From assembly GCF_055900595.2 (NCBI RefSeq), contig NZ_CM148325.1: a stretch of 64,000 nt of DNA; one strand, written 5' to 3'. Of this stretch, positions 1,036 to 59,225 are shown one piece after another. Numbering within the stretch: position 1 is the first letter of the stretch; each line of letters starts with the position of its first letter. Under the pieces are notes generated by a model that saw only the letters and a list, made by a program, of their open reading frames with translations, did not search any database and had not been told where the DNA came from. Made by a program: the position numbers and the translations under genes.

Positions 1036-1141
1036 TCATTATGCGGGTTTTAATTTATACCTTCACACATTCTTTAATTAATGAAACCTGTAATAACAGG
1101 ATGGCATGAAATATTAGTTTTATACTCTATGGAGATTATTT

Positions 1142-3178
1142 ATGGATACGCCACGCCCACAGTTATTAGATTTTCAATTTCATCAGAATAACGACAGTTT
1201 TACTCTACGTTTTCAAGACCGTCTTATTTTAATCCATAGCAAAGATAATCCTTGCTTATCGATTGGCTCAGGTATAGCGGATATCGATATGTTCCGCGGT
1301 AATTTCAGCATTAAAGATAAATTGCAGGAGAAAATTGCGCTGACCGACGCCATCGTCAGCCAGTCACCGGATGGCTGGTTAATCCATTTCTGCCGTGGTT
1401 CTGACATTAGCGCCACGCTGCATATCTCTACTGACGAACAAGGCCGTTTAGTGCTGAAACTGCAAAACGATGATCGTCACCATAACCGCATCTGGCTGCG
1501 TCTCGCCGCACAACCAGAGGACCATATCTACGGCTGCGGCGAACAATTCTCCTACTTTGATCTGCGCGGCAAACCGTTCCCGCTATGGACCAGTGAACAA
1601 GGCGTTGGTCGCAACAAACAAACCTATGTCACCTGGCAGGCCGACTGCAAAGAGAACGCGGGCGGCGACTATTACTGGACTTTCTTCCCGCAGCCTACTT
1701 TTGTCAGCACGCAGAAGTATTACTGCCATGTCGATAACAGCTGCTATATGAACTTCGACTTCAGTGCTCCGGAATACCATGAACTGGCATTGTGGGAAGA
1801 CAATGCCACCCTGCGTTTTGAATGTGCGGACACATACATCTCCCTGTTGGAAAAATTAACCGCCCTGCTGGGACGTCAGCCAGAACTGCCCGACTGGATT
1901 TATGACGGGGTAACGCTAGGTATTCAGGGCGGGACAGATGTATGCCAGAAGAAACTGGACACCATGCGTAACGCGGGCGTGAAGGTCAACGGCATCTGGG
2001 CGCAGGACTGGTCCGGGATCCGTATGACCTCTTTTGGCAAACGTGTGATGTGGAACTGGAAGTGGAACAGTGAAAACTACCCACAGTTAGATTCCCGCAT
2101 CAAGCAATGGAAAGAAGAAGGCGTGCAGTTCCTCGCCTACATCAACCCGTATGTTGCCAGCGATAAAGATCTCTGCGAAGAAGCGGCGCAACATGGCTAT
2201 CTGGCAAAAGATGCCTCTGGCGGTGACTATCTGGTGGAATTTGGGGAGTTTTACGGCGGCGTTGTCGATTTGACCAATCCTGAAGCCTATTCCTGGTTTA
2301 AAGAGGTCATCAAGAAAAACATGATCGAATTGGGCTGCGGCGGCTGGATGGCAGATTTTGGCGAATATTTGCCGACCGATACGTATCTGCATAACGGCGT
2401 TAGCGCCGAAATTATGCATAACGCCTGGCCCGCACTGTGGGCGAAATGTAACTACGAAGCCCTTGAAGAAACGGGCAAGCTTGGCGAGATCCTTTTCTTT
2501 ATGCGCGCCGGTTCTACCGGTAGCCAGAAATACTCCACCATGATGTGGGCGGGCGACCAGAACGTCGACTGGAGTCTGGACGATGGCCTGGCGTCGGTTG
2601 TTCCGGCGGCGCTCTCGCTGGCGATGACCGGGCATGGCCTGCATCACAGTGACATTGGCGGTTACACCACCCTGTTTGAGATGAAGCGCAGCAAAGAGCT
2701 GCTGCTGCGCTGGTGCGATTTCAGCGCCTTCACGCCGATGATGCGCACCCACGAAGGTAACCGTCCTGGCGACAACTGGCAGTTTGACGGCGACGCGGAA
2801 ACCATCGCCCATTTTGCCCGTATGACCACCGTCTTCACCACCCTGAAACCTTACCTCAAAGACGCCGTCGCGCAGAACGCGAAGTCCGGTCTGCCCGTTA
2901 TGCGCCCGCTGTTCCTGCATTACGAAGACGATGCACACACCTACACCCTGAAATATCAGTACCTGCTGGGCCGCGACATTCTGGTCGCTCCGGTGCACGA
3001 GCAAGGTCGCAGCGACTGGACGCTCTATCTGCCAGAGGATAACTGGGTCCACACCTGGAGCGGAGAAACCTTCCACGGCGGAGAAGTCACCGTTGAAGCG
3101 CCCATCGGCAAACCGCCGGTCTTTTATCGCGCCGACAGCGAATGGGCTGCACTGTTCGCCTCGTTAAAAAGCATCTAA
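1142..3178 (+). CDS. yihQ: Sulfoquinovosidase (GH31 alpha-glucosidase family)
   Basis: 678-aa ORF matching my recollection of E. coli YihQ in length and sequence; GGAG precedes the ATG. Confidence 0.9.
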   Translation: MDTPRPQLLDFQFHQNNDSFTLRFQDRLILIHSKDNPCLSIGSGIADIDMFRGNFSIKDKLQEKIALTDAIVSQSPDGWLIHFCRGSDISATLHISTDEQGRLVLKLQNDDRHHNRIWLRLAAQPEDHIYGCGEQFSYFDLRGKPFPLWTSEQGVGRNKQTYVTWQADCKENAGGDYYWTFFPQPTFVSTQKYYCHVDNSCYMNFDFSAPEYHELALWEDNATLRFECADTYISLLEKLTALLGRQPELPDWIYDGVTLGIQGGTDVCQKKLDTMRNAGVKVNGIWAQDWSGIRMTSFGKRVMWNWKWNSENYPQLDSRIKQWKEEGVQFLAYINPYVASDKDLCEEAAQHGYLAKDASGGDYLVEFGEFYGGVVDLTNPEAYSWFKEVIKKNMIELGCGGWMADFGEYLPTDTYLHNGVSAEIMHNAWPALWAKCNYEALEETGKLGEILFFMRAGSTGSQKYSTMMWAGDQNVDWSLDDGLASVVPAALSLAMTGHGLHHSDIGGYTTLFEMKRSKELLLRWCDFSAFTPMMRTHEGNRPGDNWQFDGDAETIAHFARMTTVFTTLKPYLKDAVAQNAKSGLPVMRPLFLHYEDDAHTYTLKYQYLLGRDILVAPVHEQGRSDWTLYLPEDNWVHTWSGETFHGGEVTVEAPIGKPPVFYRADSEWAALFASLKSI

Positions 3179-3223
3179 TCACGTCCGCCCGTGGGGAAAC
3201 TCACGGGCACAGGGAGAACAACG

Positions 3224-4609
3224 ATGAGTCACATCACAACGGAAGATCCGGCTACTTTACGCCTGCCCTTTAAAGAGAAACTCTCTTACGGTATCGGCGA
3301 TCTGGCCTCTAACATCCTGCTGGATATCGGCACGCTTTATCTTTTGAAGTTTTATACCGACGTTCTGGGGCTGCCCGGTACCTATGGCGGCATTATCTTT
3401 TTGATTTCGAAGTTCTTTACTGCGTTTACCGATATGGGTACCGGCATCATGCTCGATTCCCGACGCAAGATCGGTCCAAAAGGTAAGTTCCGTCCTTTTA
3501 TTCTGTATGCGTCATTCCCGGTCACCTTACTGGCGATCGCCAACTTTGTCGGCACACCGTTTGATGTCACCGGTAAAACGGTGATGGCCACTATCCTGTT
3601 TATGCTCTACGGGCTGTTTTTCAGCATGATGAACTGCTCTTATGGCGCAATGGTCCCCGCTATTACCAAAAACCCCAACGAACGCGCATCACTGGCGGCA
3701 TGGCGTCAGGGTGGCGCTACATTGGGCCTGCTGCTTTGTACGGTGGGATTCGTGCCGGTTATGAATCTTATCGAGGGTAATCAGCAACTTGGCTATATCT
3801 TCGCCGCCACGCTGTTTTCACTGTTCGGCCTGCTGTTTATGTGGATCTGCTATTCGGGCGTGAAAGAGCGTTATGTCGAAACGCAACCTGCAAATCCGGC
3901 GCAAAAGCCAGGCTTGTTGCAGTCTTTCCGCGCAATTGCCGGTAACCGCCCGCTGTTCATTTTGTGCATTGCTAACCTCTGTACCTTAGGGGCATTTAAC
4001 GTCAAGCTCGCCATTCAGGTCTATTACACCCAGTACGTGCTTAACGATCCCATCCTGTTGTCATATATGGGATTTTTCAGCATGGGCTGTATTTTCATCG
4101 GCGTGTTCCTGATGCCTGGTGCAGTCAGACGTTTTGGTAAGAAGAAGGTCTATATCGGCGGCCTGCTGATTTGGGTGCTGGGCGATCTGCTCAACTATTT
4201 CTTCGGCGGCGGCTCGGTCAGTTTTGTGGCGTTCTCCTGCCTGGCATTCTTCGGCTCGGCGTTTGTTAACAGCCTGAACTGGGCACTGGTTTCCGACACC
4301 GTCGAGTACGGCGAGTGGCGCACCGGCGTTCGTTCGGAAGGTACGGTCTACACCGGCTTCACCTTCTTTCGCAAAGTATCTCAGGCGCTGGCAGGTTTCT
4401 TCCCAGGCTGGATGCTGACGCAAATCGGCTATGTGCCAAACGTGGCGCAGGCTGACCATACCATCGAAGGTTTACGCCAGCTGATCTTCATCTACCCAAG
4501 CGCACTGGCGGTAGTCACCATTGTTACGATGGGTTGCTTCTACAGTCTGAACGAGAAAATGTACGTCCGCATTGTTGAAGAAATAGAAGCCCGTAAACGC
4601 ACGGCATAA
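3224..4609 (+). CDS. yihP: GPH-family sugar:cation symporter (putative DHPS/sulfoquinovose transporter)
   Basis: Start placed at internal ATG (MSHITTEDP) preceded by GGGAG; 461 aa, multi-TM, paralogous to the next gene. Confidence 0.85.
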   Translation: MSHITTEDPATLRLPFKEKLSYGIGDLASNILLDIGTLYLLKFYTDVLGLPGTYGGIIFLISKFFTAFTDMGTGIMLDSRRKIGPKGKFRPFILYASFPVTLLAIANFVGTPFDVTGKTVMATILFMLYGLFFSMMNCSYGAMVPAITKNPNERASLAAWRQGGATLGLLLCTVGFVPVMNLIEGNQQLGYIFAATLFSLFGLLFMWICYSGVKERYVETQPANPAQKPGLLQSFRAIAGNRPLFILCIANLCTLGAFNVKLAIQVYYTQYVLNDPILLSYMGFFSMGCIFIGVFLMPGAVRRFGKKKVYIGGLLIWVLGDLLNYFFGGGSVSFVAFSCLAFFGSAFVNSLNWALVSDTVEYGEWRTGVRSEGTVYTGFTFFRKVSQALAGFFPGWMLTQIGYVPNVAQADHTIEGLRQLIFIYPSALAVVTIVTMGCFYSLNEKMYVRIVEEIEARKRTA

Positions 4610-6813: not shown

Positions 6814-7025
6814 TGTGAAAATGTAAAAAGTCGCTGATATGGACTGCCCCCCATAAAGTTGGACAGTTCAGGTTAAGCGGCTTTTTACACAGATATTCAC
6901 AATATAAATAACTCCCCATAATTATATAACCACGTTGATTATAAAATATTCCTCGTCCTCTCTATCAAAGTCATTGACTACCAGGTAAGATCTTTTCCAC
7001 CGCAACACTCACAAGGAATGAGAAA

Positions 7026-7874
7026 ATGGAAAAGAAATTTTTTATGGATTGGGATAATGAAATCCCGCAAGAAGAGTTTATTAACAATATTTTAGCCGAT
7101 GAAGACCTGCCTAAAATCCGCTCTCTGATTATTGGTCGTTGGGGGGAGTGCTGGGATGAGGAAAGTTGCCAACCAATAATCGACATGTTTGTTGAACATG
7201 CCGAACGCTTTGCTCATCTCGAATCCCTATTTATCGGCGATATGGAAAGCGAAGAGTGTGAAATTTCGTGGATAAAACAAGGGGATTATTCTCGTCTGTA
7301 TGCTGCGCTGCCGAACCTCAAAAAGCTGACAATTAAAGGTACTCAGGGCCTGGAACTGGGAGAAATCGCCCATGACAAACTGGAGCATCTGGAAATTATC
7401 TCTGGCGGTACGCCGTGTGACGTGTTCGCCTCATTGCAAAATGCCCAACTGCCTGCGTTAAAAACACTTATCGTTTATATTGGCGTTGAGAATTATGGTT
7501 TTGATGCATCGCTGGATATCGTAATGAAGCTGGCGTCGAAATCCCTCTTCCCGAGCCTGACGCATCTTGGCCTGGTGAACAGCGAAGAGCAAAACGAAAT
7601 CGTCCGCCGCGTGCTGGAAAGCGACATTCTGCCGCAACTGGAAGTGCTGGCACTCTCCTGCGGTACGCTTACCGACGAAGGTGCAGAGCATCTTCTCAAA
7701 CATGCCGATCGCCTTAGCCATCTGAAACTGCTGGATTTGTACCATCATTACCTGACAGAAGAGATGCAGAAAAAACTGCAAAAAACACTGACATGTACTC
7801 TCGAATTATCAGAAGCGCTAACGCCTGAAGTCTATGATGACGAAATTTATATGCATGCGATGTATACCGAATAA
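7026..7874 (+). CDS. Leucine-rich-repeat-like acidic cytoplasmic protein (I recall the family being labelled STM4015-like)
   Basis: 282-aa ORF with no signal peptide; repeated L-P-x-L-K-x-L / L-x-x-L-x-L segments (LPNLKKLTIKG, LEHLEIISGG, LPALKTLIVYIG, FPSLTHLGLVNS, LPQLEVLALSCG, LSHLKLLDL); AAGGA 8 nt upstream of ATG. Confidence 0.7.
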   Translation: MEKKFFMDWDNEIPQEEFINNILADEDLPKIRSLIIGRWGECWDEESCQPIIDMFVEHAERFAHLESLFIGDMESEECEISWIKQGDYSRLYAALPNLKKLTIKGTQGLELGEIAHDKLEHLEIISGGTPCDVFASLQNAQLPALKTLIVYIGVENYGFDASLDIVMKLASKSLFPSLTHLGLVNSEEQNEIVRRVLESDILPQLEVLALSCGTLTDEGAEHLLKHADRLSHLKLLDLYHHYLTEEMQKKLQKTLTCTLELSEALTPEVYDDEIYMHAMYTE

Positions 7875-7934
7875 ATGACATTTATTGGGAGAGAGTCATC
7901 TCTCCCATTATTTATCACAGAAAAGGAATTCTTC

Positions 7935-8921
7935 GTGATTACGCTAATTGGTCATCCTGAAAGCAAACGCACATTTTATTTTTGCCAGGCAGCGTCACGC
8001 TTACAGGAACATATCAACGTAGTGAGCTATGATCAAGCACTTACCCTGCTCTTAAATAAAGGCATGGTAAAAATCGATCCCCCCTTACATCAGGAAACAG
8101 ATATTCGCTTAATTAATACGGTTAGCCAAAACTATATTACTTTTTTACAAAAAATGGCTACCAGAAGGGAGATCCGTTTTATTAACTCACCAGAAGGTAT
8201 TATTCATCTTCTGGATAAACGCCACTGTAAGCAACGATTAGTCGAACACGCGATCCCGACACCGCCAATATTAGCGGATGATATCCGTAGCTACGATCAA
8301 CTGATCGCCTGTATGCGCAGCGAAAAGGTTTATCGCGTGTTTATTAAGCCGAATTTCGGATCAGGGGCCGCCGGGGTGCTGGCTTTGAGTCTACATCCCG
8401 GCGATAACCGTCAGGTGCTTTATTGCGCCATCCAGGTTGCAGGTGACAGGCTGGTGAACAGTAAACATATTATCCGCTATGAAAACAGCGGTGATATTAC
8501 GTTGATTGTGAATGCTATTTTACAACAAGACAATATTATCGAACGCTGGCTGGCAAAAGCCAGAGTGGGCAATAAAAGCTACGATTTACGCATCGTGTAC
8601 GTTAATGGTGAAATCGTCTGGCGGGTTGTCAGAACATCATCACAGCCGATCACCAATTTACATTTACAAAATGAAGCTATCCGTTTTGCCGATCTTAATT
8701 TACCCGTAGAAAAAGTAGCTGAAATTGATACGCTTTGTCTCAACGCCATGACCCTCTATCCGGACGTACACATTGCCGGGCTTGACGTATTACTCACGCA
8801 AAATTTAACACCCTATATTATCGAAATTAACGGCCAGGGCGATCTTATTTATCAGGACACCTGCGAAAAAAACAAAATTTATCAACGCCAGATTCAGGTA
8901 ATGAGAGAACATCATGTATAA
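7935..8921 (+). CDS. ATP-grasp-like protein (I recall the family being labelled STM4014-like)
   Basis: ORF 7875-8921; start placed at in-frame GTG 7935 because AAGGA lies 7 nt upstream, but the ATG at 7875 immediately after the preceding stop is an alternative. The ATP-grasp assignment is by resemblance only. Confidence 0.55.
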   Translation: MITLIGHPESKRTFYFCQAASRLQEHINVVSYDQALTLLLNKGMVKIDPPLHQETDIRLINTVSQNYITFLQKMATRREIRFINSPEGIIHLLDKRHCKQRLVEHAIPTPPILADDIRSYDQLIACMRSEKVYRVFIKPNFGSGAAGVLALSLHPGDNRQVLYCAIQVAGDRLVNSKHIIRYENSGDITLIVNAILQQDNIIERWLAKARVGNKSYDLRIVYVNGEIVWRVVRTSSQPITNLHLQNEAIRFADLNLPVEKVAEIDTLCLNAMTLYPDVHIAGLDVLLTQNLTPYIIEINGQGDLIYQDTCEKNKIYQRQIQVMREHHV

Positions 8922-9786
8922 CGTAACAGACGAAGTACCGGAAAATACCCGCACGGCAATCCATTCCTGCGATGGCGAAATCAATCTGAATGATTTAATT
9001 GCCAGGGAAGCCAATATCCTGTTTGTGGTGCTTGATTCCCTGCGTTTTGATATTGCGTTTCAGGAACAAGAGGCGGGAAATACACCAAATATTAACCGCT
9101 ATGGTCGCTGGATAAAGTGTGAAGCCGCTGGCAATTTTACCTGGCCTTCGCATCATTCGATGTTCTCTGGTTTTATGCCTAAGCCGCTGGAAGCTGCACC
9201 TGGTCATTCAATGCTCTTTTTCCCGAAAGATATTGGTTTAGGTCGTTTAGGGCCAAAAAATGCGTTCGCGTTCAGCGAAGAGACGTGGATTAAAGGGCTG
9301 GAAAACAAAGGTTACCGCACTATCTGCGTGGGTGGCGTCTCCTTTTTTAATAACCGCTCAGGGATGGGAAAAGTGTTCCCGGCGATGTTTAAAGAGAGTT
9401 ACTGGTATCCTAATTTCTCCTGCACGGTGAAAGAGAGCATGGATAATCAGCTCACCTTAATTAACAAAAAGGTGAACGCTGAACAGCCGCTGATGATGTA
9501 TATCAATATCGACACCATTCATTATCCGAATCATTTTTATATTGAAAATGCCAAACCTGGCGATACGGTAGAAACTCACGCCGCTGCCCTGCATTATATT
9601 GATGCCAGAATCGAAAAACTTTTCGATATCTTTCGGCAAACCGGGCGGGAGACGTTAGTTATTCTCTGTTCCGATCATGGCACCTGCTACGGGGAAGACG
9701 GTAAATATTTCCACAGTTTTAACCATCCGATTGTGAATACCGTACCCTATTTTCACTTTGTGTTAGACGGCAAAGACCATGAATAA
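8914..9786 (+). CDS. Alkaline-phosphatase-superfamily metallo-hydrolase (phosphodiesterase/phosphomutase/sulfatase-like core)
   Basis: 290-aa ORF with N-terminal FVVLDSLRFD motif typical of AlkP-core metal-binding enzymes; start overlaps the upstream stop by 8 nt. Confidence 0.7.
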   Translation: MYNVTDEVPENTRTAIHSCDGEINLNDLIAREANILFVVLDSLRFDIAFQEQEAGNTPNINRYGRWIKCEAAGNFTWPSHHSMFSGFMPKPLEAAPGHSMLFFPKDIGLGRLGPKNAFAFSEETWIKGLENKGYRTICVGGVSFFNNRSGMGKVFPAMFKESYWYPNFSCTVKESMDNQLTLINKKVNAEQPLMMYINIDTIHYPNHFYIENAKPGDTVETHAAALHYIDARIEKLFDIFRQTGRETLVILCSDHGTCYGEDGKYFHSFNHPIVNTVPYFHFVLDGKDHE

Positions 9787-11017
9787 TGAATCGATTTATC
9801 AGCAATATATGTACAGTTACCCGCATAAGACCGCTTATCGGGAATTAAACAATATTGCTTTTGCGGATGTGAAATCGCGTATTTACGAGCATAAAACACA
9901 TCTCTATATTCATATGCCTTTTTGCCAGAGCCGCTGCGGGTTTTGTAATCTCTTTACCTGCACGGGGGCAGACAATGCCTTTATCGACAACTACATAGAA
10001 GCAATTATTATCCAGGCCCGGCAAATGCAACTTGCGCCTGTAGACTGGGCCAGTTTTACCATTGGCGGCGGTACGCCACTACTGCTTAATACCGGGCAAC
10101 TGTCACGGTTGTTTCGCGGGGTGTTTGACGAATTACAGGTCGATGCGCAGATTTTTAAGGCAATTGAAACATCGCCTTCCGATACCACCGCCGAAAAGGT
10201 CGCGTTATTGCGCCAGCTTGCGGTAAACCGCGTCAGTATTGGCATTCAGAGTTTTAACGATCTGGAACTTGCCACATTACACCGCCGCCATAGTGCGGAA
10301 AATGCCCATCGGGCGCTGGAGCTACTGCGCAGGGGTAATTTCCCGATAATCAATATTGATATTATTTACGGTATTCCTGGTCAAACAGCCGCAAGTTTAA
10401 TGGCGTCGCTTAATCAAGCATTAGATTATCAGCCTGACGAACTGTTTCTGTACCCGCTATATAACATGCCGCGTCAGCCGGATATGTATAGCCTCTATAT
10501 TGAAGCCCGCGATCGCTTATTGCATGAAGGTTATACGCAAACGTCAATGCGCCGTTTTGTGCGGGTGAATAATGATTCGGCGGCTGAAAGTTGTGGCTTT
10601 GAAAATTCGCTGGCGCTTGGCGCGGGCGGGCGCAGTTATCTTGGCAATTTACATTACTGCACGCCGTGGTCGCAAAACCAGCCCGCATCGCGGCAAATTG
10701 TCACGGATTTTATCGCCCGGCCAGATAAGACCCAGATTCACCACGGCTATGTACTTTCACAAGCAGAAATGAAGCGGCGTTTTATTATCAAGAATCTCTT
10801 TTTCTATAAGGGGCTTTCGTTACGGGATTATCAGCACCAGTTCTTCTCTGAGGTATTAAGCGATTTTCCCCTGCTGGGCGATTTCATCAAACAAGATTAC
10901 TGCCACCAGCAGGATAATCGTATTCTGCTCACCGCGCAGGGTTTAGCGCTTTCGGACCAGCTTGGCCCGCTGTTTATCTCCCCGGAAGTTCGCAGGCTGG
11001 AGACGCATAAACGATGA
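9779..11017 (+). CDS. HemN/HemW-like radical SAM protein
   Basis: 412-aa ORF with YIHMPFCQSRCGFC (C49-x3-C53-x2-C56) radical SAM motif in HemN-like context; start overlaps the upstream stop. Confidence 0.8.
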   Translation: MNNESIYQQYMYSYPHKTAYRELNNIAFADVKSRIYEHKTHLYIHMPFCQSRCGFCNLFTCTGADNAFIDNYIEAIIIQARQMQLAPVDWASFTIGGGTPLLLNTGQLSRLFRGVFDELQVDAQIFKAIETSPSDTTAEKVALLRQLAVNRVSIGIQSFNDLELATLHRRHSAENAHRALELLRRGNFPIINIDIIYGIPGQTAASLMASLNQALDYQPDELFLYPLYNMPRQPDMYSLYIEARDRLLHEGYTQTSMRRFVRVNNDSAAESCGFENSLALGAGGRSYLGNLHYCTPWSQNQPASRQIVTDFIARPDKTQIHHGYVLSQAEMKRRFIIKNLFFYKGLSLRDYQHQFFSEVLSDFPLLGDFIKQDYCHQQDNRILLTAQGLALSDQLGPLFISPEVRRLETHKR

Positions 11018-11871
11018 CGCTCAAGCAGATCCAGACGCTGATTTATCGCGGCGAGATAAAGTCGTGTAATTATCGCTGTGGTTATTGCCCTTTTCATAAA
11101 CAAGACCGCAATGATAAACAGCAGGATGAAGTGGCATTATGGCGCATGGTTGAACATTTACCGGCGCAGGGTTCACCATTAAATGTATTTATTACGCCCT
11201 ACGGCGAAGCATTGCGTTATCGTTATTATATGGCGGCGATGGCGGAAATCAGCCGCTATTCCCATGTGCAGGCGGTGGGTATTCAGACCAACGCCTCTTT
11301 TAATTTATCCACCTTAGTCGCGACTTTTCAGCACTCTCAGGGCGATTTAGCAAAGCTGCGGCTGTGGTGTTCGTTTCATCCTTCCCAGGCAAGTAAAGAA
11401 GTTTTCCTTAAACAGTTACTGGCAATTAAGGACACGGGGATTACCTGTTCTGTGGGGGCCGTCGCCAGCGTAGCCGACTATGACGAATTACAGTGGTTAC
11501 GCGCGCATCTTCCTCCCGATATCTATTTCTGGCTAAACGCCAATGAGCGCGATAAAAGGCCCACCAGCGACGAAAGAAATAGCCAGTTTCAGTTGCTGGA
11601 CCCGCTTTATTATCTGGAAACCAGCCTCTGGCCTGCCAATGTCGAGTTTTGTCTGGGCGGCAAAAAGAGCGTGTTTATGAATGCTGATGGCGATCTCTTC
11701 GCCTGTAATATCAGCAAAATTAAGATTGGCAATTTATATCAACAGCAACTTTCATCTCCGTCTTGTATGTCCAGGCACTGTCACTGTTATCTGGCTTATC
11801 ACCTGCGTGAGGATATTCCGGCCCTCTCACAATTTGATGCTGAACGCTGCTTTCGGATCTTCTCGTTATGA
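11014..11871 (+). CDS. Small radical SAM protein with C-terminal Cys/His cluster
   Basis: 285-aa ORF; CNYRCGYC (C18-x3-C22-x2-C25) near N-terminus; C231, C251, C256, C258 near C-terminus; ATGA overlap with upstream stop. Confidence 0.75.
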   Translation: MTLKQIQTLIYRGEIKSCNYRCGYCPFHKQDRNDKQQDEVALWRMVEHLPAQGSPLNVFITPYGEALRYRYYMAAMAEISRYSHVQAVGIQTNASFNLSTLVATFQHSQGDLAKLRLWCSFHPSQASKEVFLKQLLAIKDTGITCSVGAVASVADYDELQWLRAHLPPDIYFWLNANERDKRPTSDERNSQFQLLDPLYYLETSLWPANVEFCLGGKKSVFMNADGDLFACNISKIKIGNLYQQQLSSPSCMSRHCHCYLAYHLREDIPALSQFDAERCFRIFSL

Positions 11872-12563
11872 TCTGGCGGTTAATCGCGCTCGATTTAGAC
11901 GGCACATTGCTGAACAGCAAGAAGATGATTTCCCCTGCGTCTGTTTCGGCACTGCAAAGCGCACAACAGGCAGGTGTGAAAATTATCCTCGCCACCGGAC
12001 GTTCGCACAGCGAAGCCCTGCCTTATTACCAACAATTGCAGTTAACCGAGCCGATGATTTGCTGTAACGGCAGCTATCTTTATCATCCGCGCCAGCGGCA
12101 AATATTGCGTCCGCTGGCGCTTGATATCCACAAGGTGGAAAGGCTACGACTCTGGTTTTCACAACAAATATTGCAGCCAAATATTTATACGTACGATGAT
12201 TTTGTTTTGCAGATTAGCCTGATACACCGCAAGGCTTCGTTATTGCGCCAGACAGAGGAATTTGCCCGACAAGAATTATCGCTGGCCTGTAGCTGGTCCT
12301 GGCATCATCAACTGGATATTACACAGGTGGGGTGTGAGAAAGGCAAAAGTCTGGCCTGGTATGCCCGACAGCAAAATATCGTGCTGGATGAAATCATCGC
12401 CTTTGGCGATAACGATAATGATGCGGGGATGCTGCGGATGGTAGGCAAAGGGATTGCGATGGGCAATGGCAGTTCGCTGGCAAAAGTCAGTGCTGACCGC
12501 GTTATTGGTCACAACAACACAGATGCTATTGCGGATTTTCTTGATGCGCAGGGTTTCAGATGA
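11868..12563 (+). CDS. HAD-superfamily Cof-type phosphatase
   Basis: 231-aa ORF with N-terminal ALDLDGTLL motif (HAD motif I) and GDNDND near the C-terminus; ATGA overlap with upstream stop. Confidence 0.8.
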   Translation: MIWRLIALDLDGTLLNSKKMISPASVSALQSAQQAGVKIILATGRSHSEALPYYQQLQLTEPMICCNGSYLYHPRQRQILRPLALDIHKVERLRLWFSQQILQPNIYTYDDFVLQISLIHRKASLLRQTEEFARQELSLACSWSWHHQLDITQVGCEKGKSLAWYARQQNIVLDEIIAFGDNDNDAGMLRMVGKGIAMGNGSSLAKVSADRVIGHNNTDAIADFLDAQGFR

Positions 12564-12564
12564 C

Positions 12565-12600
12565 GCCTGATGCGATGCTGACGCATCTTATCAGGCCTAC
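12565..12600. repeat. REP (repetitive extragenic palindromic) element
   Basis: gcctgatgcgatgctgacgcatcttatcaggcctac, the typical enterobacterial REP palindrome. Confidence 0.75.
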
Positions 12601-12604
12601 AAAA

Positions 12605-12637
12605 GCAAAAAACCTGCCATCGCTGGCAGGTTTTTTA
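12605..12637. terminator. Bidirectional rho-independent terminator (typA and the upstream operon)
   Basis: A-tract, cctgccatcgctggcagg hairpin, then TTTTTT, between convergent genes. Confidence 0.8.
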
Positions 12638-12653
12638 TGACTAAAAAACGAAA

Positions 12654-19354: not shown

Positions 19355-20728
19355 TTAAATCACCCGTGAGAACTGCTGCATCCGCGCTTTCTGGCGCAGA
19401 TAGGTATCAAAGCACATGCAAATGTTGCGGATCAGCAGGCGACCTTTCGCCGTTACCTGAATCCCCTTCTCATCCACATCCACCAGCCCATCTTTTGCTA
19501 ACGGGGCGAGCAGCTTGAGATCTTCTGCAAAGTAGTCAGCGAAGAGCAAATCCCACTGTTGCTCAATAGGGGCGTAATCCAGACGGAAGTTGCAGATGAG
19601 CGACTTAATCACATCGCGGCGAATACAGTCATCACGCGTTAGCGCAATACCACGCCACAGCGCATTGCCTTGTTCATCCACTTGCTGATAGTACTGCTTC
19701 AACTCTTTCTGGTTCTGCGCGTAGCAGTCGCCAATCATGCTGATGGCGGAAACGCCCATCCCCAGCAGATCGGTATCGCCCTGAGTGGTGTAGCCCTGGA
19801 AGTTACGATGCAGCACGCCTTCACGCTGGGCCACCGCCAGCTCGTCATCCGGACGGGCAAAGTGATCCATACCGATAAACTGATAGCCCGATTGTGTCAG
19901 GAAGGCGATGGTTTCCTGCAGGATATCGAGTTTTTGCTGCGGACTCGGCAGGTCAGCATCTTTGATTTTACGCTGAGCAGCAAAAATGGTCGGCAAATGC
20001 GCGTAGTTAAAGACACTCAGGCGATCGGGGTTAAGTTCCGCCACGCGTTTCAGGGTAAAGGCGAAACTCTCCGGCGTTTGTTTCGGCAGGCCGTAAATCA
20101 GGTCGATGTTGGTGGAGGTAAAGCCAATCTCACGCGCATGGTTAAGCAGTGCAAAGATGAACTCTTCATCCTGCTCGCGGTTAACCAGACGTTGCACTTC
20201 TTTGTTGAAGTCCTGCACGCCCATGCTCAGGCGATTAAAGCCTTCGGCGCGTAAATGATCGAGTACATCCAGTTCGATTTCCCGCGGATCGACTTCGATC
20301 GAGATCTCCGCATCGGCATTGAACTGGAAGTTTTCGCGCAGCAGCTTCATCAGACGGCTGATTTGCGCTTTATTCAGATACGTCGGCGTTCCTCCGCCCC
20401 AGTGCAATTGGCTGACGTGACGCCCGGCGAACAGCGGTGCACGATGGACGATTTCTTGCTCCAGCGCGTCCAGATACTGATCGGCCTTGTGCTGCTGGCG
20501 AGTAACAATCTTATTGCAACCGCAGAAGTAACAAAGCTTATGGCAGAACGGGATATGTACGTAGAGAGATAATGGACGCTCAGGATAGCGCGCCACGGCT
20601 TGTAAAAACGCCTGTTCGCCGAAGTCTTCTGAAAACTCCAGCGCGGTTGGGTACGAGGTGTATCGTGGCCCGGAATAGTTATATTTCTGGATCAGGGCCA
20701 GATCCCAGTCGATTTGCTGTACAGACAT
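19355..20728 (-). CDS. hemN: Oxygen-independent coproporphyrinogen III oxidase (radical SAM)
   Basis: 457 aa from MSVQQIDW; YVHIPFCHKLCYFCGC radical SAM motif including the fourth Cys. Confidence 0.95.
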   Translation of the reverse strand: MSVQQIDWDLALIQKYNYSGPRYTSYPTALEFSEDFGEQAFLQAVARYPERPLSLYVHIPFCHKLCYFCGCNKIVTRQQHKADQYLDALEQEIVHRAPLFAGRHVSQLHWGGGTPTYLNKAQISRLMKLLRENFQFNADAEISIEVDPREIELDVLDHLRAEGFNRLSMGVQDFNKEVQRLVNREQDEEFIFALLNHAREIGFTSTNIDLIYGLPKQTPESFAFTLKRVAELNPDRLSVFNYAHLPTIFAAQRKIKDADLPSPQQKLDILQETIAFLTQSGYQFIGMDHFARPDDELAVAQREGVLHRNFQGYTTQGDTDLLGMGVSAISMIGDCYAQNQKELKQYYQQVDEQGNALWRGIALTRDDCIRRDVIKSLICNFRLDYAPIEQQWDLLFADYFAEDLKLLAPLAKDGLVDVDEKGIQVTAKGRLLIRNICMCFDTYLRQKARMQQFSRVI

Positions 20729-31858: not shown

Positions 31859-31904
31859 GCTGGATAAGATGCGCCAGCGTCGCATCCGGCATGATTTTCT
31901 GCAC

Positions 31905-31940
31905 CAATGCAAAAAGGCCATCCGTCAGGATGGCCTTTCG
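31905..31940 (-). terminator. rRNA operon terminator
   Basis: aggccatcctgacggatggcct hairpin followed by TTTTT downstream of 5S rRNA. Confidence 0.8.
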
Positions 31941-31949
31941 CTTAATTTG

Positions 31950-32070
31950 ATGCCTGGCAGTTCCCTACTCTCGCATGGGGAGACCCCACACTACCATCGG
32001 CGCTACGGCGTTTCACTTCTGAGTTCGGCATGGGGTCAGGTGGGACCACCGCGCTAAGGCCGCCAGGCAA
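31950..32070 (-). rRNA. rrfA: 5S ribosomal RNA
   Basis: Reverse complement matches E. coli 5S rRNA (TGCCTGGCGGC...GGAACTGCCAGGCAT). Confidence 0.95.
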
Positions 32071-32162
32071 ATTCTGTTTCATCAGACCGCTTCTGCGTTC
32101 TGATTTAATCTGTATCAGGCTGAAAATCTTCTCTCAATCCGCCAAAACATCTTCGGCGTTGT

Positions 32163-35067
<2,905 letters not shown>

Positions 35068-35250
35068 TCACAACCCGAAGATGTTTCTTTCGATTCATCA
35101 TCGTGTTGCGAAAATTTGAGAGACTCACGAACAACTTTCGTTGTTCAGTGTTTCAATTTTCAGCTTGATCCAGATTTTTAAAGAGCAAAACTTCGCAGTG
35201 AACCTTTGCAGGTACACTCTGAAGTATTTTTTATTTAATCACTACAGAGA

Positions 35251-35326
35251 TGGTGGAGCTATGCGGGATCGAACCGCAGACCTCCTGCGTGCAAAGCAGG
35301 CGCTCTCCCAGCTGAGCTATAGCCCC
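35251..35326 (-). tRNA. alaT: tRNA-Ala (UGC)
   Basis: Reverse complement is GGGGCTATAGCTCAGCTGGGAGAGCGCCTGCTTTGCACGCAGGAGGTCTGCGGTTCGATCCCGCATAGCTCCACCA. Confidence 0.95.
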
Positions 35327-35368
35327 ATAACATGTAGTTAAAACCTCTTCAAATTTGCGGTGCAAATT

Positions 35369-35445
<77 letters not shown>

Positions 35446-35513
35446 GTAGAGGTTTTACTGCTCATTCTCATCAGACAATCTGTGTGAGCACTGCAAAGAA
35501 CAGTTCTTTCAGG

Positions 35514-37055
<1,542 letters not shown>

Positions 37056-37236
37056 AAAAGTTTGATGCTCAAAGAATTAAACTTCGTAATGAATTACATG
37101 TTCACTCTTGAGACTTGGTATTCATTTTTCGTCTTGCGACGTTAAGAATCCGTATCTTCGAGTGCCCACACAGATTGTCTGATAAATTGTTAAAGAGCAG
37201 TGCCGCTTCGCTTTTTCTCAGCGGCGCGGGGTGTGC

Positions 37237-37264
37237 ATAATACGCTTTCCCGCTTCAGAGTCAA
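37237..37264 (-). promoter_or_regulatory. rRNA operon promoter P2
   Basis: - strand TTGACT-N17-TATTAT followed by GC-rich discriminator. Confidence 0.8.
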
Positions 37265-37354
37265 GCATTTTTTTGCTTTTCTCTGTCGAGATTCTCAGGA
37301 GAATCTCGCTGACCCGGCGGCGTGTTTGCCGTTGTTCCGTGTCAGTGGTGGCGC

Positions 37355-37382
37355 ATTATAGGGAGTTATTCCGGCCTGACAA
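37355..37382 (-). promoter_or_regulatory. rRNA operon promoter P1
   Basis: - strand TTGTCA-N16-TATAAT with an AT-rich UP-element-like stretch immediately upstream (37383-37430). Confidence 0.8.
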
Positions 37383-37431
37383 GAGGAAATTTAAAATAAT
37401 TTTCCGACCGCGCATTTTTTACTCTTTATGC

Positions 37432-37977
37432 TTATTTCAGCGTCGGTTTGTCGGTTAAATGGGCGATTTCTCGGGCGAAATTCGCCACCTGCTGCCAATC
37501 GGTATAGACAACTTCTTTGCGCGTATCCGTTTCACCGCCTGACATCTTCATAATCAGCTTGATCATAAAGCGGTCGTACCAGCGGTAACGTGGATAACGT
37601 AGCGCCCCGGCAATGACGGCACAGCGATCGGGACGCCATTGTGAACTCATCAGAAACTTCCGCGCGTAGCTGTTGGTCTGTGGAGTACGCTTCTCCGGTT
37701 TACGCGCCACCAGGTTTACGGAGTAAAAGGCGCTCGGCATCGAATTCAGCCGCGTCGCATGCTTTTTGACAAATTCCTGGAACGCAGAGTGGTAGTGACC
37801 ATAGCGAATAGAAGCACCAATGACCACGCGATCGTAGTTTTCCCACTGGGGTTCTTCAATGCGATGCACATTAGCGACATCTGCCTGGATCCCCAGTTCT
37901 TTCAGTTCCGAAGCCAGGTAGGCGGCAATCTCGCGCGTTTGTCCGTCCCTTGTTGAGAAAAGAATTAATGTTTTCAC
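37432..37977 (-). CDS. hemG: Protoporphyrinogen oxidase (flavodoxin-like)
   Basis: 181-aa [17 protein letters not shown] flavodoxin fold. Confidence 0.9.
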
Positions 37978-37988
37978 GTATTACTCCA

Positions 37989-39440
37989 TCATTCACGCCA
38001 GAAAGTCGGGGTAAAGAGCACCAGCAATGTAAAGACCTCGAGACGACCAAACAGCATATTGGCAATCAGGATCCATTTAGCCACCGGGTTCATACTGGTA
38101 AAGTTATCAGCAACCACGCCAAGCCCTGGCCCCAGGTTATTCAATGTCGCAACAACCGAGGCAAAGGCAGAAAAGTCATCCACACCCGTGGCGATAATCG
38201 CCAGCATACTGACGATAAACACCAGGGCATAAGCGGAGAAAAATCCCCAAACAGCTTCGAGGATACGTTCCGGCAGTGCGCGATTCCCCAGCTTAATGCT
38301 GTAAACGGCGTTCGGATGCACCAGTCGTTTCAGCTCACGGTTCCCCTGCTTAAACAGCAGCAGAATGCGGATCACTTTCAGGCCACCGCCCGTAGACCCG
38401 GCGCAACCGCCAATAAATGCTGAACATAAAAGCAGTACCGGCAAAAAGAGCGGCCAGCGGGCAATGCTGTCAGTCGTAAACCCGGCGGTTGTCGCCATCG
38501 ACACCACCTGGAAAAACGCCTGGTTAATTGTCATCAGCGCCGAACTATAGACATTATGAAACCACAGCACGAGGGTACAAATAACCACCAGCGTAAACTG
38601 TACGCCGATAAACATGCGAAATTCCGGATCGCGCCAATAAACCTTCAGACTACGCCCACTTAACAGCGAAAAGTGCAGACCGTAGTTACAGCCGGAGATC
38701 AGCAGGAAGATAGCAATGATAGTGTTAATAGTCGGGCTGTCGAAATAACCGATACTGGCATCATGTGTCGAGAAGCCGCCAATAGCGATAGTCGCAAAGC
38801 TATGGCCGATGGCATCAAAGGCATCCATTCCGGCAAACCACAACGCCAGCGCACAGGCGACGGTCAGCAAGACATAAATCAACCACAGGGTTTTCGCCGT
38901 TTCCGCAATTCGCGGGCGCATTTTGTTATCTTTCAGCGGGCCGGGCATTTCCGCGCGATAGAGCTGCATCCCACCCACGCCGAGGATAGGCAGTATCGCA
39001 ACCGCCAACACGATGATCCCCATCCCGCCAAACCATTGCAGCATCTGGCGATAAAAGAGGATTGCGTGAGGAAGTGTATCCAGTCCCACCAGCGTAGTGG
39101 CCCCCGTGGTAGTCAGACCGGAGAAAGATTCAAAAAACGCATCGGTAATCGTGAGGTTTGGGCTTTCCGAAAAGATAAAAGGGAGCGCACCGACGCTACC
39201 CAACACGGTCCAGAACAGCACCACTATCAGAAACCCTTCACGGGATTTCAGTTCGCCCTTTTCTTTACGGTTCGGCCACCACAGCATAGAACCAATGGCA
39301 AGGGCGACAAAAAAGGTCTGGGTAAAGGCGCGGCCCGCACCATCCCGGTAGATGAGTGCTACCAGCCCAGGGATAATCATGGTCCCTGAAAATAAGATGA
39401 CCAGTAGTCCAACAATTCGGGTAATGGCGCGAAAATGCAT
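37989..39440 (-). CDS. trkH: Trk system potassium uptake protein
   Basis: 483-aa polytopic membrane ORF. Confidence 0.9.
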   Translation of the reverse strand: MHFRAITRIVGLLVILFSGTMIIPGLVALIYRDGAGRAFTQTFFVALAIGSMLWWPNRKEKGELKSREGFLIVVLFWTVLGSVGALPFIFSESPNLTITDAFFESFSGLTTTGATTLVGLDTLPHAILFYRQMLQWFGGMGIIVLAVAILPILGVGGMQLYRAEMPGPLKDNKMRPRIAETAKTLWLIYVLLTVACALALWFAGMDAFDAIGHSFATIAIGGFSTHDASIGYFDSPTINTIIAIFLLISGCNYGLHFSLLSGRSLKVYWRDPEFRMFIGVQFTLVVICTLVLWFHNVYSSALMTINQAFFQVVSMATTAGFTTDSIARWPLFLPVLLLCSAFIGGCAGSTGGGLKVIRILLLFKQGNRELKRLVHPNAVYSIKLGNRALPERILEAVWGFFSAYALVFIVSMLAIIATGVDDFSAFASVVATLNNLGPGLGVVADNFTSMNPVAKWILIANMLFGRLEVFTLLVLFTPTFWRE

Positions 39441-53633: not shown

Positions 53634-55061
53634 CTAGCGCGACTGCTGATTATATTCATCATCGCGTTGATAAGCTTCATCATTCGGCTGCTCCGGAACC
53701 GACCGCAGTCGATACTCTTCATCCTGGCTCACCGCTTGTTCAGCCAAATCCGGATTAATCTCGCGTTTAATTTCTACCCCTAAACCGCGAAACGCTTCTG
53801 CTTGCGCCAGCACATTTCCGCGACCTGAAGAGAGTTTTTTCATTGCCTGACGATAGTTGTCCTGTGCTTTGTCCAGACTTTGACCAATCGCGGACATATC
53901 ATCGACAAACAAGCGCATTTTGTCGTACAACTTGCTGGCGCGATCGGCTATTTTCTGGGCGTTACGACTTTGATGCTCATAGCGCCAGAGGTTGGCGATA
54001 GTGCGCAGCGCCACCAGCAGCGTGGTCGGGCTAACCAGCATGATATTGTTTTTCAACGCTTCGGTGATCAGCTCCGGCTGGCGGTCAAGCGCCAGTAAAA
54101 AAGCGGGTTCAACGGGAATAAACATCAGCACGTAATCCAGGGTTCGCAGCCCCGGCAGCTGTTGATAATCTTTGCGTCCCAGCAAACGGATATGGTTACG
54201 CACCGACGCGATATGTTCCTGTAGCGCGCTTTCGCGGGTGTAGTCGTCTTCTGCGTTGAAATAGCGTTCATAGGCGACCAGCGTCATTTTTGCGTCGATC
54301 ACCACAACTTTGCCCTGCGGCAGCCGCACGATGACATCCGGCTGCATCCGCGAGCGGGCGTCATTTTCGATGCTGACCTGGGTTTCATATTCATACCCTT
54401 CACGCAGACCGGAAGCCTCCAGCACACGCGTCAATACTACCTCGCCCCAGTTGCCCTGGGTTTTATTGTCGCCTTTCAGCGCACGCGTCAGGTTGATCGC
54501 TTCCTGGGCCATTTGCGCGTTGAGCTGCTGGAGATTGCGTATTTCGTGAGTCAGGGTATGGCGTTCTTGTGCTTCTTTACCGAAACTGTCCTGAACCTGA
54601 CGACGAAAACCGTCCAGTTGTTCACGTAGTGGCGACAACAGGCTGTTCAGACTCTGACGGTTTTGCTCATCAACCCGGCGATTGCTGTGCTCGAAAATAC
54701 GGTTGGCGAGGTTTTCAAACTGCTCACTGAGGCGCTGTTCGCTGTTGATCATTTGGCGAATTTTATCGTCAGCATGTTGCTGTACGGCCTCCATTCGCGT
54801 GGTGACCTCACGCAGATCCGCCTCCAGCGAGGTGTTAATGCTTTGCAGACTGCGCACTTCATTATTGAGTAACTCGCACTCAGCACGCCAATGTTCGCTT
54901 TGGGTAATTTGTTGTTTTGCCGCACTTAACTCCGCGACCATCTCTTCACGTTCAGCGAATTGCTCGGCTTTTTGCTGCGCATGCTGATAACTGGCAATCA
55001 GCCAGCCAATCGCCACGCTCACCAACGCAATAACTGCGTAAACCATGATTGAGATATCCAC
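53634..55061 (-). CDS. rmuC: DNA recombination protein RmuC
   Basis: 475 aa from a GTG start preceded by GGAGG; N-terminal TM helix and coiled coil. Confidence 0.85.
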   Translation of the reverse strand: MDISIMVYAVIALVSVAIGWLIASYQHAQQKAEQFAEREEMVAELSAAKQQITQSEHWRAECELLNNEVRSLQSINTSLEADLREVTTRMEAVQQHADDKIRQMINSEQRLSEQFENLANRIFEHSNRRVDEQNRQSLNSLLSPLREQLDGFRRQVQDSFGKEAQERHTLTHEIRNLQQLNAQMAQEAINLTRALKGDNKTQGNWGEVVLTRVLEASGLREGYEYETQVSIENDARSRMQPDVIVRLPQGKVVVIDAKMTLVAYERYFNAEDDYTRESALQEHIASVRNHIRLLGRKDYQQLPGLRTLDYVLMFIPVEPAFLLALDRQPELITEALKNNIMLVSPTTLLVALRTIANLWRYEHQSRNAQKIADRASKLYDKMRLFVDDMSAIGQSLDKAQDNYRQAMKKLSSGRGNVLAQAEAFRGLGVEIKREINPDLAEQAVSQDEEYRLRSVPEQPNDEAYQRDDEYNQQSR

Positions 55062-55179
55062 AACGCCTCCAGCCTCATTACTTACCCGCACAAAATAGAA
55101 TTGTGCTGTACAAACGTCCAGTTTGAAAGAAGTTTCCTGCGAGGCGCTACGCAAAACGATCCTTAATTTTTATTATTTT

Positions 55180-55215
55180 ATCCCACAATATGAGACGTAG
55201 TTTATATTGTGGGAT
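55180..55215. promoter_or_regulatory. Perfect 12-bp inverted repeat (candidate IclR-type operator)
   Basis: atcccacaatat (55180-55191) and atattgtgggat (55204-55215) are exact reverse complements separated by 12 bp, about 60 bp upstream of the IclR-family gene. Confidence 0.5.
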
Positions 55216-55276
55216 ATATCACCTTTTCCCCACGTCATTATGTGGAACACTTCAGCAATATCATCAGGAGAAACGT

Positions 55277-56044
55277 ATGGCAGATACCTCTTCAACCACC
55301 GCTGGCGCACAAACGTTATTACGCGGGCTGGCGGTTCTTAATGCTGTTTATAACGGCTGCCATGACCTGAAAAGTATCGGCGAGTTCACCGGCACGACCC
55401 GGAGCACAACCCATCGTTTAGTCACCGTTCTGGTGGAACAACGCTACCTGCGCCACGTCCCAACGCAGGGCTACCAACTGGGCGCCAAACTGATCGAATT
55501 CGGTGCCAGAGCACTGGAAAGCACCTCGCTGTACGAAGTTGCGCTGCCCGTTTTGCAGCGTCTGGCCCGTTACACCCTGGACACCGTGCATCTGGGGATC
55601 GTTGAAGGCGGCGAAGTGCTGTATCTGGAGAAGATCAACAGTCAGCGTGGGCTGGAAATGCGCTCACGCCCAGGCCATCGCATGCCACTGGCAATCACCG
55701 GCATCGGCAAGGCATTGATCCTCAACCGAACAGAAGAAGAGTGGCGCACGCTGTTTAAGACCTGTGGTGATGAAACAAAACTGGGCACATTTATTCAGAA
55801 CATGCGTCGTTATGCCGCCAGTGGTTTTGCTTTTGATCTGGAAGAGAACGAGCCGACTATCCGTTGCGTTGCAGCGCCGGTTTACAACGCCCGGGATGAA
55901 ATTGTGGCGGCTATTTCTGTCGCCAGTACCACTACGTATATGTCACTGGCGCGTCTGGAAGAACTGGCACCTTACGTCAAATCCTGTGCAGAAGAGATAT
56001 CCGCTGAACTGGGCTGGGGTAAGCACGTCCACAAAAATAAATAA
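55277..56044 (+). CDS. IclR-family transcriptional regulator
   Basis: 255 aa from MADTSS with CAGGAG upstream; N-terminal HTH and C-terminal effector domain. Confidence 0.85.
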   Translation: MADTSSTTAGAQTLLRGLAVLNAVYNGCHDLKSIGEFTGTTRSTTHRLVTVLVEQRYLRHVPTQGYQLGAKLIEFGARALESTSLYEVALPVLQRLARYTLDTVHLGIVEGGEVLYLEKINSQRGLEMRSRPGHRMPLAITGIGKALILNRTEEEWRTLFKTCGDETKLGTFIQNMRRYAASGFAFDLEENEPTIRCVAAPVYNARDEIVAAISVASTTTYMSLARLEELAPYVKSCAEEISAELGWGKHVHKNK

Positions 56045-56067
56045 ACCATGACTAAAGGAAACGGCTA

Positions 56068-57691: not shown

Positions 57692-57715
57692 CTGATAAAT
57701 AAGGATATAAAAGCA

Positions 57716-58690: not shown

Positions 58691-58706
58691 TCCCGAGGTA
58701 CGGTCG

Positions 58707-59213: not shown

Positions 59214-59225
59214 CAGGGGCCTGCA

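Follow-up and report, generated by a model that had tools for sequence, protein, structure and literature searches.

We analysed a 64,000-nucleotide stretch of contig NZ_CM148325.1 (NCBI RefSeq assembly GCF_055900595.2; the whole stretch is referred to below as the window), with a focus on a gene encoding a HemN-like radical S-adenosylmethionine (SAM) protein of the STM4012 family. As judged from its sequence, this protein belongs to the HemN branch of radical SAM enzymes, appears catalytically competent and falls into none of the characterised types. Its gene is part of an apparently horizontally mobile cassette of five to six genes, in which a leucine-rich-repeat (LRR)-like protein (STM4015) is encoded together with an ATP-grasp enzyme (STM4014), a predicted phosphoesterase or phosphotransferase (STM4013), STM4012 itself, a second radical SAM protein (STM4011) and, usually, a HAD phosphatase. 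STM4015 ends in a conserved tail with a terminal glutamate, and the best-supported reading of the cassette is that STM4015 serves as its substrate or carrier. The STM4012 family as such is already known: it is catalogued and functionally uncharacterised, and RefSeq names the gene in the window 'STM4012 family radical SAM protein'. What is new is the logic of the cassette and the terminal-glutamate tail, from which a specific and testable hypothesis follows.

The STM4012 protein and its relation to HemN

The sole curated family model passed by the STM4012 protein is NF006067 ('STM4012 family radical SAM protein'; 491.8 bits, E = 1.7e-147, cut-off 380), to which it aligns over its full length (residues 7-409 of the protein with positions 2-424 of the 427 in the profile). 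The protein failed the models for HemN (TIGR00538; 124.4 bits versus a cut-off of 324.95, with only residues 12-231 aligned), HemW (TIGR00539; 137 versus 205.4 bits, the top score among the models of characterised families), ChuW/HutW (TIGR04107; 124.1 versus 400 bits) and HemZ (TIGR03994; 118.3 versus 321.4 bits). The haem-binding motif HNxxYW of HemW was present in none of the 121 sequences in which we searched for it. On these curated model cut-offs and the motifs, we rejected an identity as a redundant HemN, HemW, ChuW or HemZ. The Pfam matches comprise Radical_SAM (9.6e-20) and, weakly, HemN_C (2.2e-3).

Affiliation with the HemN branch is seen both in structure-based comparisons and in individual residues. 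The nearest solved structures are HemN of Escherichia coli (CgdH; 1OLT, 1.3e-26) and then NocN (9p2u, 7.1e-23), and identity with HemN over the catalytic core amounts to about 30%. Residues Y43 and H45, the CX3CX2C and GGGTP motifs, and residues E130, Q157, R170 and D193 of STM4012 align to Y56, H58, CX3CX2C, GGGTP, E145, Q172, R184 and D209 of HemN; the cluster motif and the SAM-binding elements that define the radical SAM superfamily are thus both found in STM4012. Because the residues that hold the cluster and SAM in HemN are conserved, the protein is predicted to be an active enzyme of this branch. Its three-part layout, in which an N-terminal segment and the radical SAM core precede a HemN_C domain, is that of HemN, and its N-terminal YxYSYPHKTAY stretch is homologous to the corresponding HemN segment, YNYSGPRYTSYP.

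The translated STM4012 open reading frame (ORF) contains LYIHMPFCQSRCGFCNLFTC (CQSRCGFCNLF), and the product of the housekeeping hemN gene, which lies at a distance of 8.3 kb, contains LYVHIPFCHKLCYFCGCNK (CHKLCYFCGC). The strings, the coordinates and the distance of 8 kb between the two genes that had been given in the initial annotation of this DNA, made from the sequence alone, proved correct. That annotation had also stated that the fourth HemN cysteine is replaced by asparagine in STM4012. In the HMMER and MAFFT alignments, both ungapped here, C62, C66, C69, G70 and C71 of HemN pair with C49, C53, C56, N57 and L58 of STM4012. The fourth cysteine is hence indeed absent, but its column holds Leu58, while Asn57 sits under Gly70 of HemN; this slip by a single residue leaves the point unaffected. 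The C-x3-C-x2-C-N-L-F signature occurs in 120 of 120 family members, so that leucine in the column of HemN Cys71 is invariant, while Cys61 of the window protein is unconserved (74% of the members have valine there). To judge from these alignments, the motif common to HemN and STM4012 is a strong signal of homology rather than a chance pattern.

The HemN-like protein HemW (YggW) lacks the fourth cysteine as well, and its HNxxYW motif is missing from the STM4012 family. HemW is also said, in work by Haskamp et al. from 2018, to be devoid of the N-terminal segment of HemN, whereas STM4012 keeps a homologous extension. STM4012 differs from HemN in the invariant leucine at the position of Cys71 and in a genetic context without haem genes. 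The notion that a HemN-like protein without the fourth cysteine is not an oxidase, on which the initial annotation had relied, is a heuristic only; a counterexample comes from Campylobacter jejuni, where a HemN-like protein with a CX3CX2CXC motif is reported to be a haem chaperone and not an oxidase (PMC10320005). The model cut-offs, the invariant leucine and the haem-free cassette together support the earlier proposal that STM4012 is not redundant with hemN, and it is almost certainly no second HemN or coproporphyrinogen oxidase.

HemN-like proteins comprise several uncharacterised bacterial subclades, are often mis-annotated as coproporphyrinogen oxidases, and have a known reaction for few clades only (2022 perspective, PMC10114718). 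The class C methyltransferases (NocN/NosN, TbtI, ChuW/HutW, Jaw5, C10P and MenK/MqnK) are HemN-like non-oxidases, as we propose for STM4012, which falls in none of their characterised clades. Since the HemN residues that contact two SAM molecules are conserved, a mechanism via a SAM-derived methylene radical appears possible for STM4012 (PMC10114718). In the literature that we searched, no class C enzyme comes with a partner set consisting of an LRR protein, an ATP-grasp enzyme, an alkaline-phosphatase-family enzyme, a SPASM-like radical SAM protein and a HAD phosphatase, and targeted full-text searches retrieved no functional study.

The STM4015 tail and the conserved cassette

The STM4012 gene is the fourth of six plus-strand ORFs with overlapping stops and starts (7026-12563), which are translationally coupled: its start overlaps the stop of the ORF at 8914-9786, and its own stop overlaps the next start at 11014. 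This operon sits between ompL and the convergent typA gene, and all partner genes exceed the cut-offs of their own NCBIfam models (Table 1).

We scanned 100,044 species genomes with a profile built for STM4015 and obtained 424 places; 80 of them were fetched in addition to five earlier loci. All five families, in the order 15-14-13-12-11, were present in 56 of these 80 species-level loci, and most of the others end at contig ends. An independent metagenome scan, seeded with STM4011, provided 38 informative loci with at least 4.6 kb of upstream sequence. All five families were found in 36 of them, 33 times in the canonical order and three times with STM4014 and STM4015 swapped. Salmonella, Lachnospiraceae and Oxalobacteraceae share the gene order seen in the window, and a Janthinobacterium-type locus carries the five families above cut-off and has no HAD gene. 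The STM4012 clade itself is represented in Salmonella enterica, as well as in gut Clostridia and soil Betaproteobacteria, which together number in the hundreds. Genes for haem uptake, degradation or biosynthesis were found in none of the cassette loci examined. Seven loci in Eubacterium metagenome-assembled genomes apparently carry the STM4015-STM4014 pair alone. A family search downstream at two loci (L021 and L028) found unrelated genes only (for HMP-P kinase, pyruvate kinase, dipicolinate synthase and a response regulator); the remaining cassette genes could lie elsewhere in these genomes.

The window is E. coli chromosomal DNA, and its interval 6900-12650 is 99.9% identical to several complete E. 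coli genomes. The cassette is present in 157 of 5426 complete E. coli genomes (about 3%), the remaining matches covering the typA terminator only, and strain K-12 has yihL-yihM-yihN in the same interval; because so few E. coli genomes carry it, the cassette is viewed as an accessory function. Its G+C content ranges from 0.42 to 0.49, compared with about 0.50-0.55 in most of the window. STM4012 identities are 95% within E. coli and 70% in Salmonella and Superficieibacter, and then fall, with nothing in between, to at most 48% in Lachnospiraceae, Hungatella and Eubacterium, a pattern that fits horizontal acquisition.

STM4015 is, according to its structural model, an LRR-like solenoid that is followed by an acidic linker and then by the conserved tail. 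The STM4015 part of an AlphaFold2 model of a fused chain consists of repeated strand-helix units with a predicted local distance difference test (pLDDT) of about 90; Pfam LRR matches are weak for the protein encoded in the window, and its relatives carry precomputed LRR_6/LRR_4 matches. The C-terminal sequence [YW]x[NYH][AP]M[LFYI]TE is common to practically every close relative of full length. An exhaustive search returned 2,296 STM4015 clusters at 50% identity, and 140 of the 147 listed cluster representatives possess a terminal glutamate (with tails such as RYVAVSE, RYVAVGE and YPMLTE). Conservation reaches 1.5-3.6 bits at each of the last eight positions versus 0.2-1.2 bits in the linker. 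In having a co-encoded protein with an Asp/Glu-rich linker and a terminal glutamate, the cassette shows one feature of C-terminal-Glu ligase systems such as RimK and LysX/ArgX.

The position of the tail at the true C-terminus is largely retained in multi-domain relatives: the STM4015 match reaches the last residue in six of eight, and stops short near the end in the other two. Five such relatives have N-terminal regions resembling internalin-like LRR, TPR, NusG/KOW-like or WGR domains, and the STM4015 module always comes last. Some loci contain STM4015 two or three times in tandem, the tails of the copies being nearly identical. Three tandem paralogues ending in ...MYPMITE or ...MWPMITE precede the enzyme genes at positions 1116-3756 of locus L077 and on the contig that encodes the STM4015 relative P0355, an arrangement reminiscent of the multiplied precursor genes of ribosomally synthesised and post-translationally modified peptides. 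Among E. coli alleles, the poly-Asp run in front of the tail varies in length (e.g. DDDDDDDDDMYPMFTE), while the tail is constant. The gene is annotated as frameshifted in the 99.9% identical genome NZ_CP098223 (L006, 3127-3974), and its copy in the window is intact. The protein database contains truncated STM4015 variants from E. coli and Salmonella, as well as a 319-residue Salmonella Typhi protein with a different end; the sequences suggest recurrent decay of the STM4015 gene in enterobacteria.

The STM4014 protein scores far under the cut-offs of the RimK and LysX families; its model is structurally nearest to ArgX-LysW, LysX/ArgX-LysW and RimK. Like STM4015, both LysW and S6 end in glutamate after an acidic stretch. 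However, LysW is a zinc-ribbon protein of 54 residues, and the putative carrier STM4015, an LRR protein of about 280 residues, is homologous neither to LysW nor to S6. The LysW system also has a downstream kinase, reductase, aminotransferase and M20 hydrolase, where the STM cassette has radical SAM enzymes and phosphoesterases. The start of the STM4014 gene is uncertain: ATG 7875 directly follows the STM4015 stop codon, and RefSeq places the start 60 nucleotides downstream at GTG 7935. The first 20 residues of the longer version have pLDDT values of 51-66 and are without counterpart in the family consensus.

In STM4013, the stretch T76-W-P-S-H80 aligns to the C-x-P-S-R motif of sulfatases, and D41, R44, D46, T76, P78, H80, H203, D254 and H255 are invariant among 68 sequences. 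This pattern indicates a minimal core of the alkaline phosphatase/sulfatase superfamily with a threonine nucleophile, which would act as a phosphoesterase or phosphotransferase. The proximity of a PF00884-family protein (STM4013) and a SPASM-type radical SAM protein (STM4011) is similar to the pairing of a sulfatase with its anaerobic sulfatase-maturating enzyme. We rejected this assignment, since T-x-P-x-H stands in STM4013 where sulfatases have their C/S-x-P-x-R formylglycine motif, with threonine in 68 of 68 sequences; the resemblance is rather to superfamily members that are phosphodiesterases or phosphotransferases. In a metagenome-assembled Hungatella genome (L044, 1157-3064), a single ORF of 635 codons matches both STM4014 and STM4013, either as a true fusion or as an assembly artefact. 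A sigma-54 site (TGGCATAAAACCTGAAAA), detected by chromatin immunoprecipitation on microarrays (ChIP-chip), lies inside STM4013 of Salmonella LT2 in the orientation opposite to that of the gene (PMC3844500). Together with an entry for STM4015 in a table of genes under positive selection, this site was all that our literature search returned for the cassette genes.

STM4011 contains an N-terminal CX3CX2C motif (C18/C22/C25) and gives weak Pfam matches to Radical_SAM (8e-4) and, over residues 213-247, SPASM (4e-3). Residues C213, G226, C231, C251, C256 and C258 are invariant, and the Cys-rich C-terminus is SPASM/twitch-like. The PqqE-PqqA and MftC-MftA systems, in which radical SAM/SPASM proteins mature C-terminal residues, offer a parallel: STM4015 likewise has a short conserved C-terminal core with Tyr/Trp and Glu, and the STM cassette resembles these systems in its SPASM-like STM4011 protein and in the tandem 'precursor' genes at some loci. 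The STM4011 proteins of Firmicutes continue at their C-terminus into a fused HAD (Hydrolase_3) domain and reach 497-514 residues, whereas Enterobacteria have a separate HAD gene that is translationally coupled; because of this fusion, we consider the sixth E. coli gene to belong to the system. Its product is 51% identical to the separate HAD protein of Superficieibacter. When the six operon proteins were submitted to PADLOC, five gave no match and STM4012 a single marginal one (9e-6, PDC-M51A), and we rejected an anti-phage defence system on this ground.

A proposed modification of the STM4015 tail and its alternatives

If STM4015 is the substrate or carrier, the two radical SAM enzymes of the cassette would modify its tail or a group that is ligated to the tail, a reading that we hold tentatively and that falls just short of an even chance. 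We infer the role of the tail as substrate, and every chemical step outlined here, from observed features, namely the families, the motifs, the cassette, the tail and the structural affinity of STM4014. STM4015 would present its flexible acidic linker and the eight-residue tail with the invariant terminal glutamate. RimK ligates onto ribosomal protein S6 and LysX/ArgX onto LysW, and the targets are C-terminal glutamates; in the same manner, the RimK/LysX-type enzyme STM4014 might activate the carboxylate of the terminal glutamate of STM4015 and ligate an amino acid or an amine to it. STM4012 and STM4011 would act next, the target of their radical chemistry being the tail or the tethered group. 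One option for STM4012 would be a one-carbon transfer of the class C type via the SAM-derived methylene radical, for which there is precedent (PMC10114718). The other would be an oxidative decarboxylation of the HemN type on a carboxyethyl (Glu-like) side chain, a reaction conceivable on the tail because its glutamyl residue offers just such a side chain. STM4013, with its threonine nucleophile, and the HAD phosphatase may process phosphoester intermediates.

Taken as a whole, this would constitute a protein-templated pathway of an undescribed kind, in which STM4014 loads or extends the glutamate of STM4015, and STM4012 and STM4011 remodel the tail or the tethered group, for example by decarboxylation of a glutamyl residue or by transfer of a one-carbon unit to the conserved aromatic residue. 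We regard this fuller scheme as possible rather than probable. If it is true, the cassette would represent a C-terminal protein modification, or a form of protein-templated biosynthesis, of a new type, and its STM4012 enzymes would provide the HemN branch with a first protein or peptide-tail substrate outside of the side-ring chemistry of thiopeptides. It would also mean that Salmonella, some E. coli and many gut Lachnospiraceae carry a new post-translational modification, and it would give a function to a large bacterial LRR family. Should the carrier model be wrong, the family to which the gene belongs is a catalogued one and the gene nothing unusual within it.

Several observations weigh against STM4015 as substrate or carrier. 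No peptidase or amidase for release is encoded in the cassette. Cap-containing HAD enzymes of the Cof type act mostly on small molecules, which fits a soluble metabolite at least as well as a tethered one. An AlphaFold2 model of STM4014 and STM4015, fused through a GS linker and computed from a paired alignment of 22 rows, gave no confident complex (predicted template modelling score 0.53; pLDDT of the tail 50-60), a result that neither supports nor refutes the reading. Two of the 38 informative metagenome loci depart from the full set: L129 (20.5 kb) carries STM4012 and STM4011 only, with STM4014 and STM4013 absent within 8 kb upstream, and STM4015 was not detected at L164. Furthermore, the tail could be a mere docking motif.

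The strongest competitor of this reading is a small-molecule pathway. There, STM4014 forms an amide in, or glutamylates, a soluble metabolite or cofactor (compare MptN, CofF, glutathione synthetase and DcsG), STM4012 and STM4011 tailor this compound (C-methylation is one example), the removal or transfer of phosphate falls to STM4013 and the HAD enzyme, and STM4015 is a scaffold, regulator or sensor that docks by its tail. The cap-type HAD enzyme, the cofactor ligases among the relatives of STM4014 and the release enzyme missing from the cassette all speak for such a pathway. It leaves unexplained, however, why 36 of the 38 loci found through STM4011 encode the LRR protein alongside the enzymes, why an invariant glutamate is placed at the true C-terminus, why the LRR gene is multiplied in tandem, and why some loci have STM4015 and STM4014 alone. 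We consider the small-molecule pathway possible, but less likely than a modification of the STM4015 tail.

A role of STM4012 in haem metabolism other than as an oxidase would place the cassette in haem or tetrapyrrole handling, with STM4012 as a HemW-like haem chaperone or as an anaerobic haem-degrading methyltransferase of the ChuW/HutW type. It draws on the HemN-like fold with its C-terminal HemN_C domain, on the resemblance of YxYSYPHKTAY to the N-terminal segment of HemN, and on the finding that E. coli HemN attains 208 bits on the STM4012 model versus 168 and 188 bits on those of HemW and ChuW. STM4012 scores under both the HemW and the ChuW/HutW cut-offs, though, HNxxYW occurs in 0 of 121 sequences, the cassette loci that we examined are free of haem genes, and the partner proteins have no known connection to tetrapyrroles; such a role is thus very improbable. 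Least credible of all, to the point that we give it hardly any weight, is the reading of STM4012 as an oxygen-independent coproporphyrinogen III oxidase of the HemN/HemZ type that would be redundant or serve as a back-up: older database names ('coproporphyrinogen III oxidase') given to relatives and the roughly 30% core identity with HemN stand against 124 versus 325 bits (HemN) and 118 versus 321 bits (HemZ), the invariant leucine instead of the fourth cysteine, the fixation of the gene in a non-haem cassette and the absence of this cassette from all but 157 of the 5426 complete genomes of E. coli.

Coordinates and further content of the window

The features of the operon, together with the housekeeping hemN gene that served for comparison, are compiled in Table 1. 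The mechanically called hemN ORF opens at GTG 20734; a start at ATG 20728 yields the product of 457 residues that is also given in RefSeq.

Table 1. Features of the STM4012 operon and of the comparison gene hemN, with positions in the window.
Feature	Positions	Strand	Basis or remark
STM4015 family protein, 282 aa	7026..7874	+	NF038076, 323 bits vs cut-off 275
Last eight residues of STM4015, YMHAMYTE-COOH	7848..7871	+	conserved tail, invariant terminal Glu
STM4014 family ATP-grasp enzyme, 348 aa from ATG 7875	7875..8921	+	passes its own NCBIfam model
STM4013/SEN3800 family enzyme, 290 aa	8914..9786	+	NF038075, 351 bits
STM4012 family HemN-like radical SAM protein, 412 aa, ATG start	9779..11017	+	NF006067, 491.8 bits
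Codons of the cluster-binding motif C49-x3-C53-x2-C56-N57-L58	9923..9952	+	HMMER and MAFFT alignments; Leu58 aligned with HemN Cys71
STM4011 family radical SAM protein, 285 aa	11014..11871	+	NF038073, 299.5 bits
Cof-type HAD-IIB phosphatase, 231 aa (end of the operon)	11868..12563	+	TIGR00099, 179 bits vs cut-off 137
GC-rich hairpin flanked on either side by T/A runs (likely bidirectional terminator)	12606..12637	.	between the convergent HAD gene and typA; consensus scan only
Housekeeping hemN, comparison only, outside the cassette	19355..20728	-	TIGR00538, 804.6 bits; hemN in a near-identical RefSeq genome

A promoter scan gave 12 matches versus 12.0 expected, that is, a number at the level of chance. 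Elsewhere in the window, hemG adjoins an rrn operon at approximately 31,900-38,000. An apparently accessory block at approximately 55,000-60,700, between udp and rmuC, contains genes for a tricarboxylate transporter of the tctABC type, homologues of 2-dehydro-3-deoxygalactonokinase and the aldolase, and an IclR regulator.

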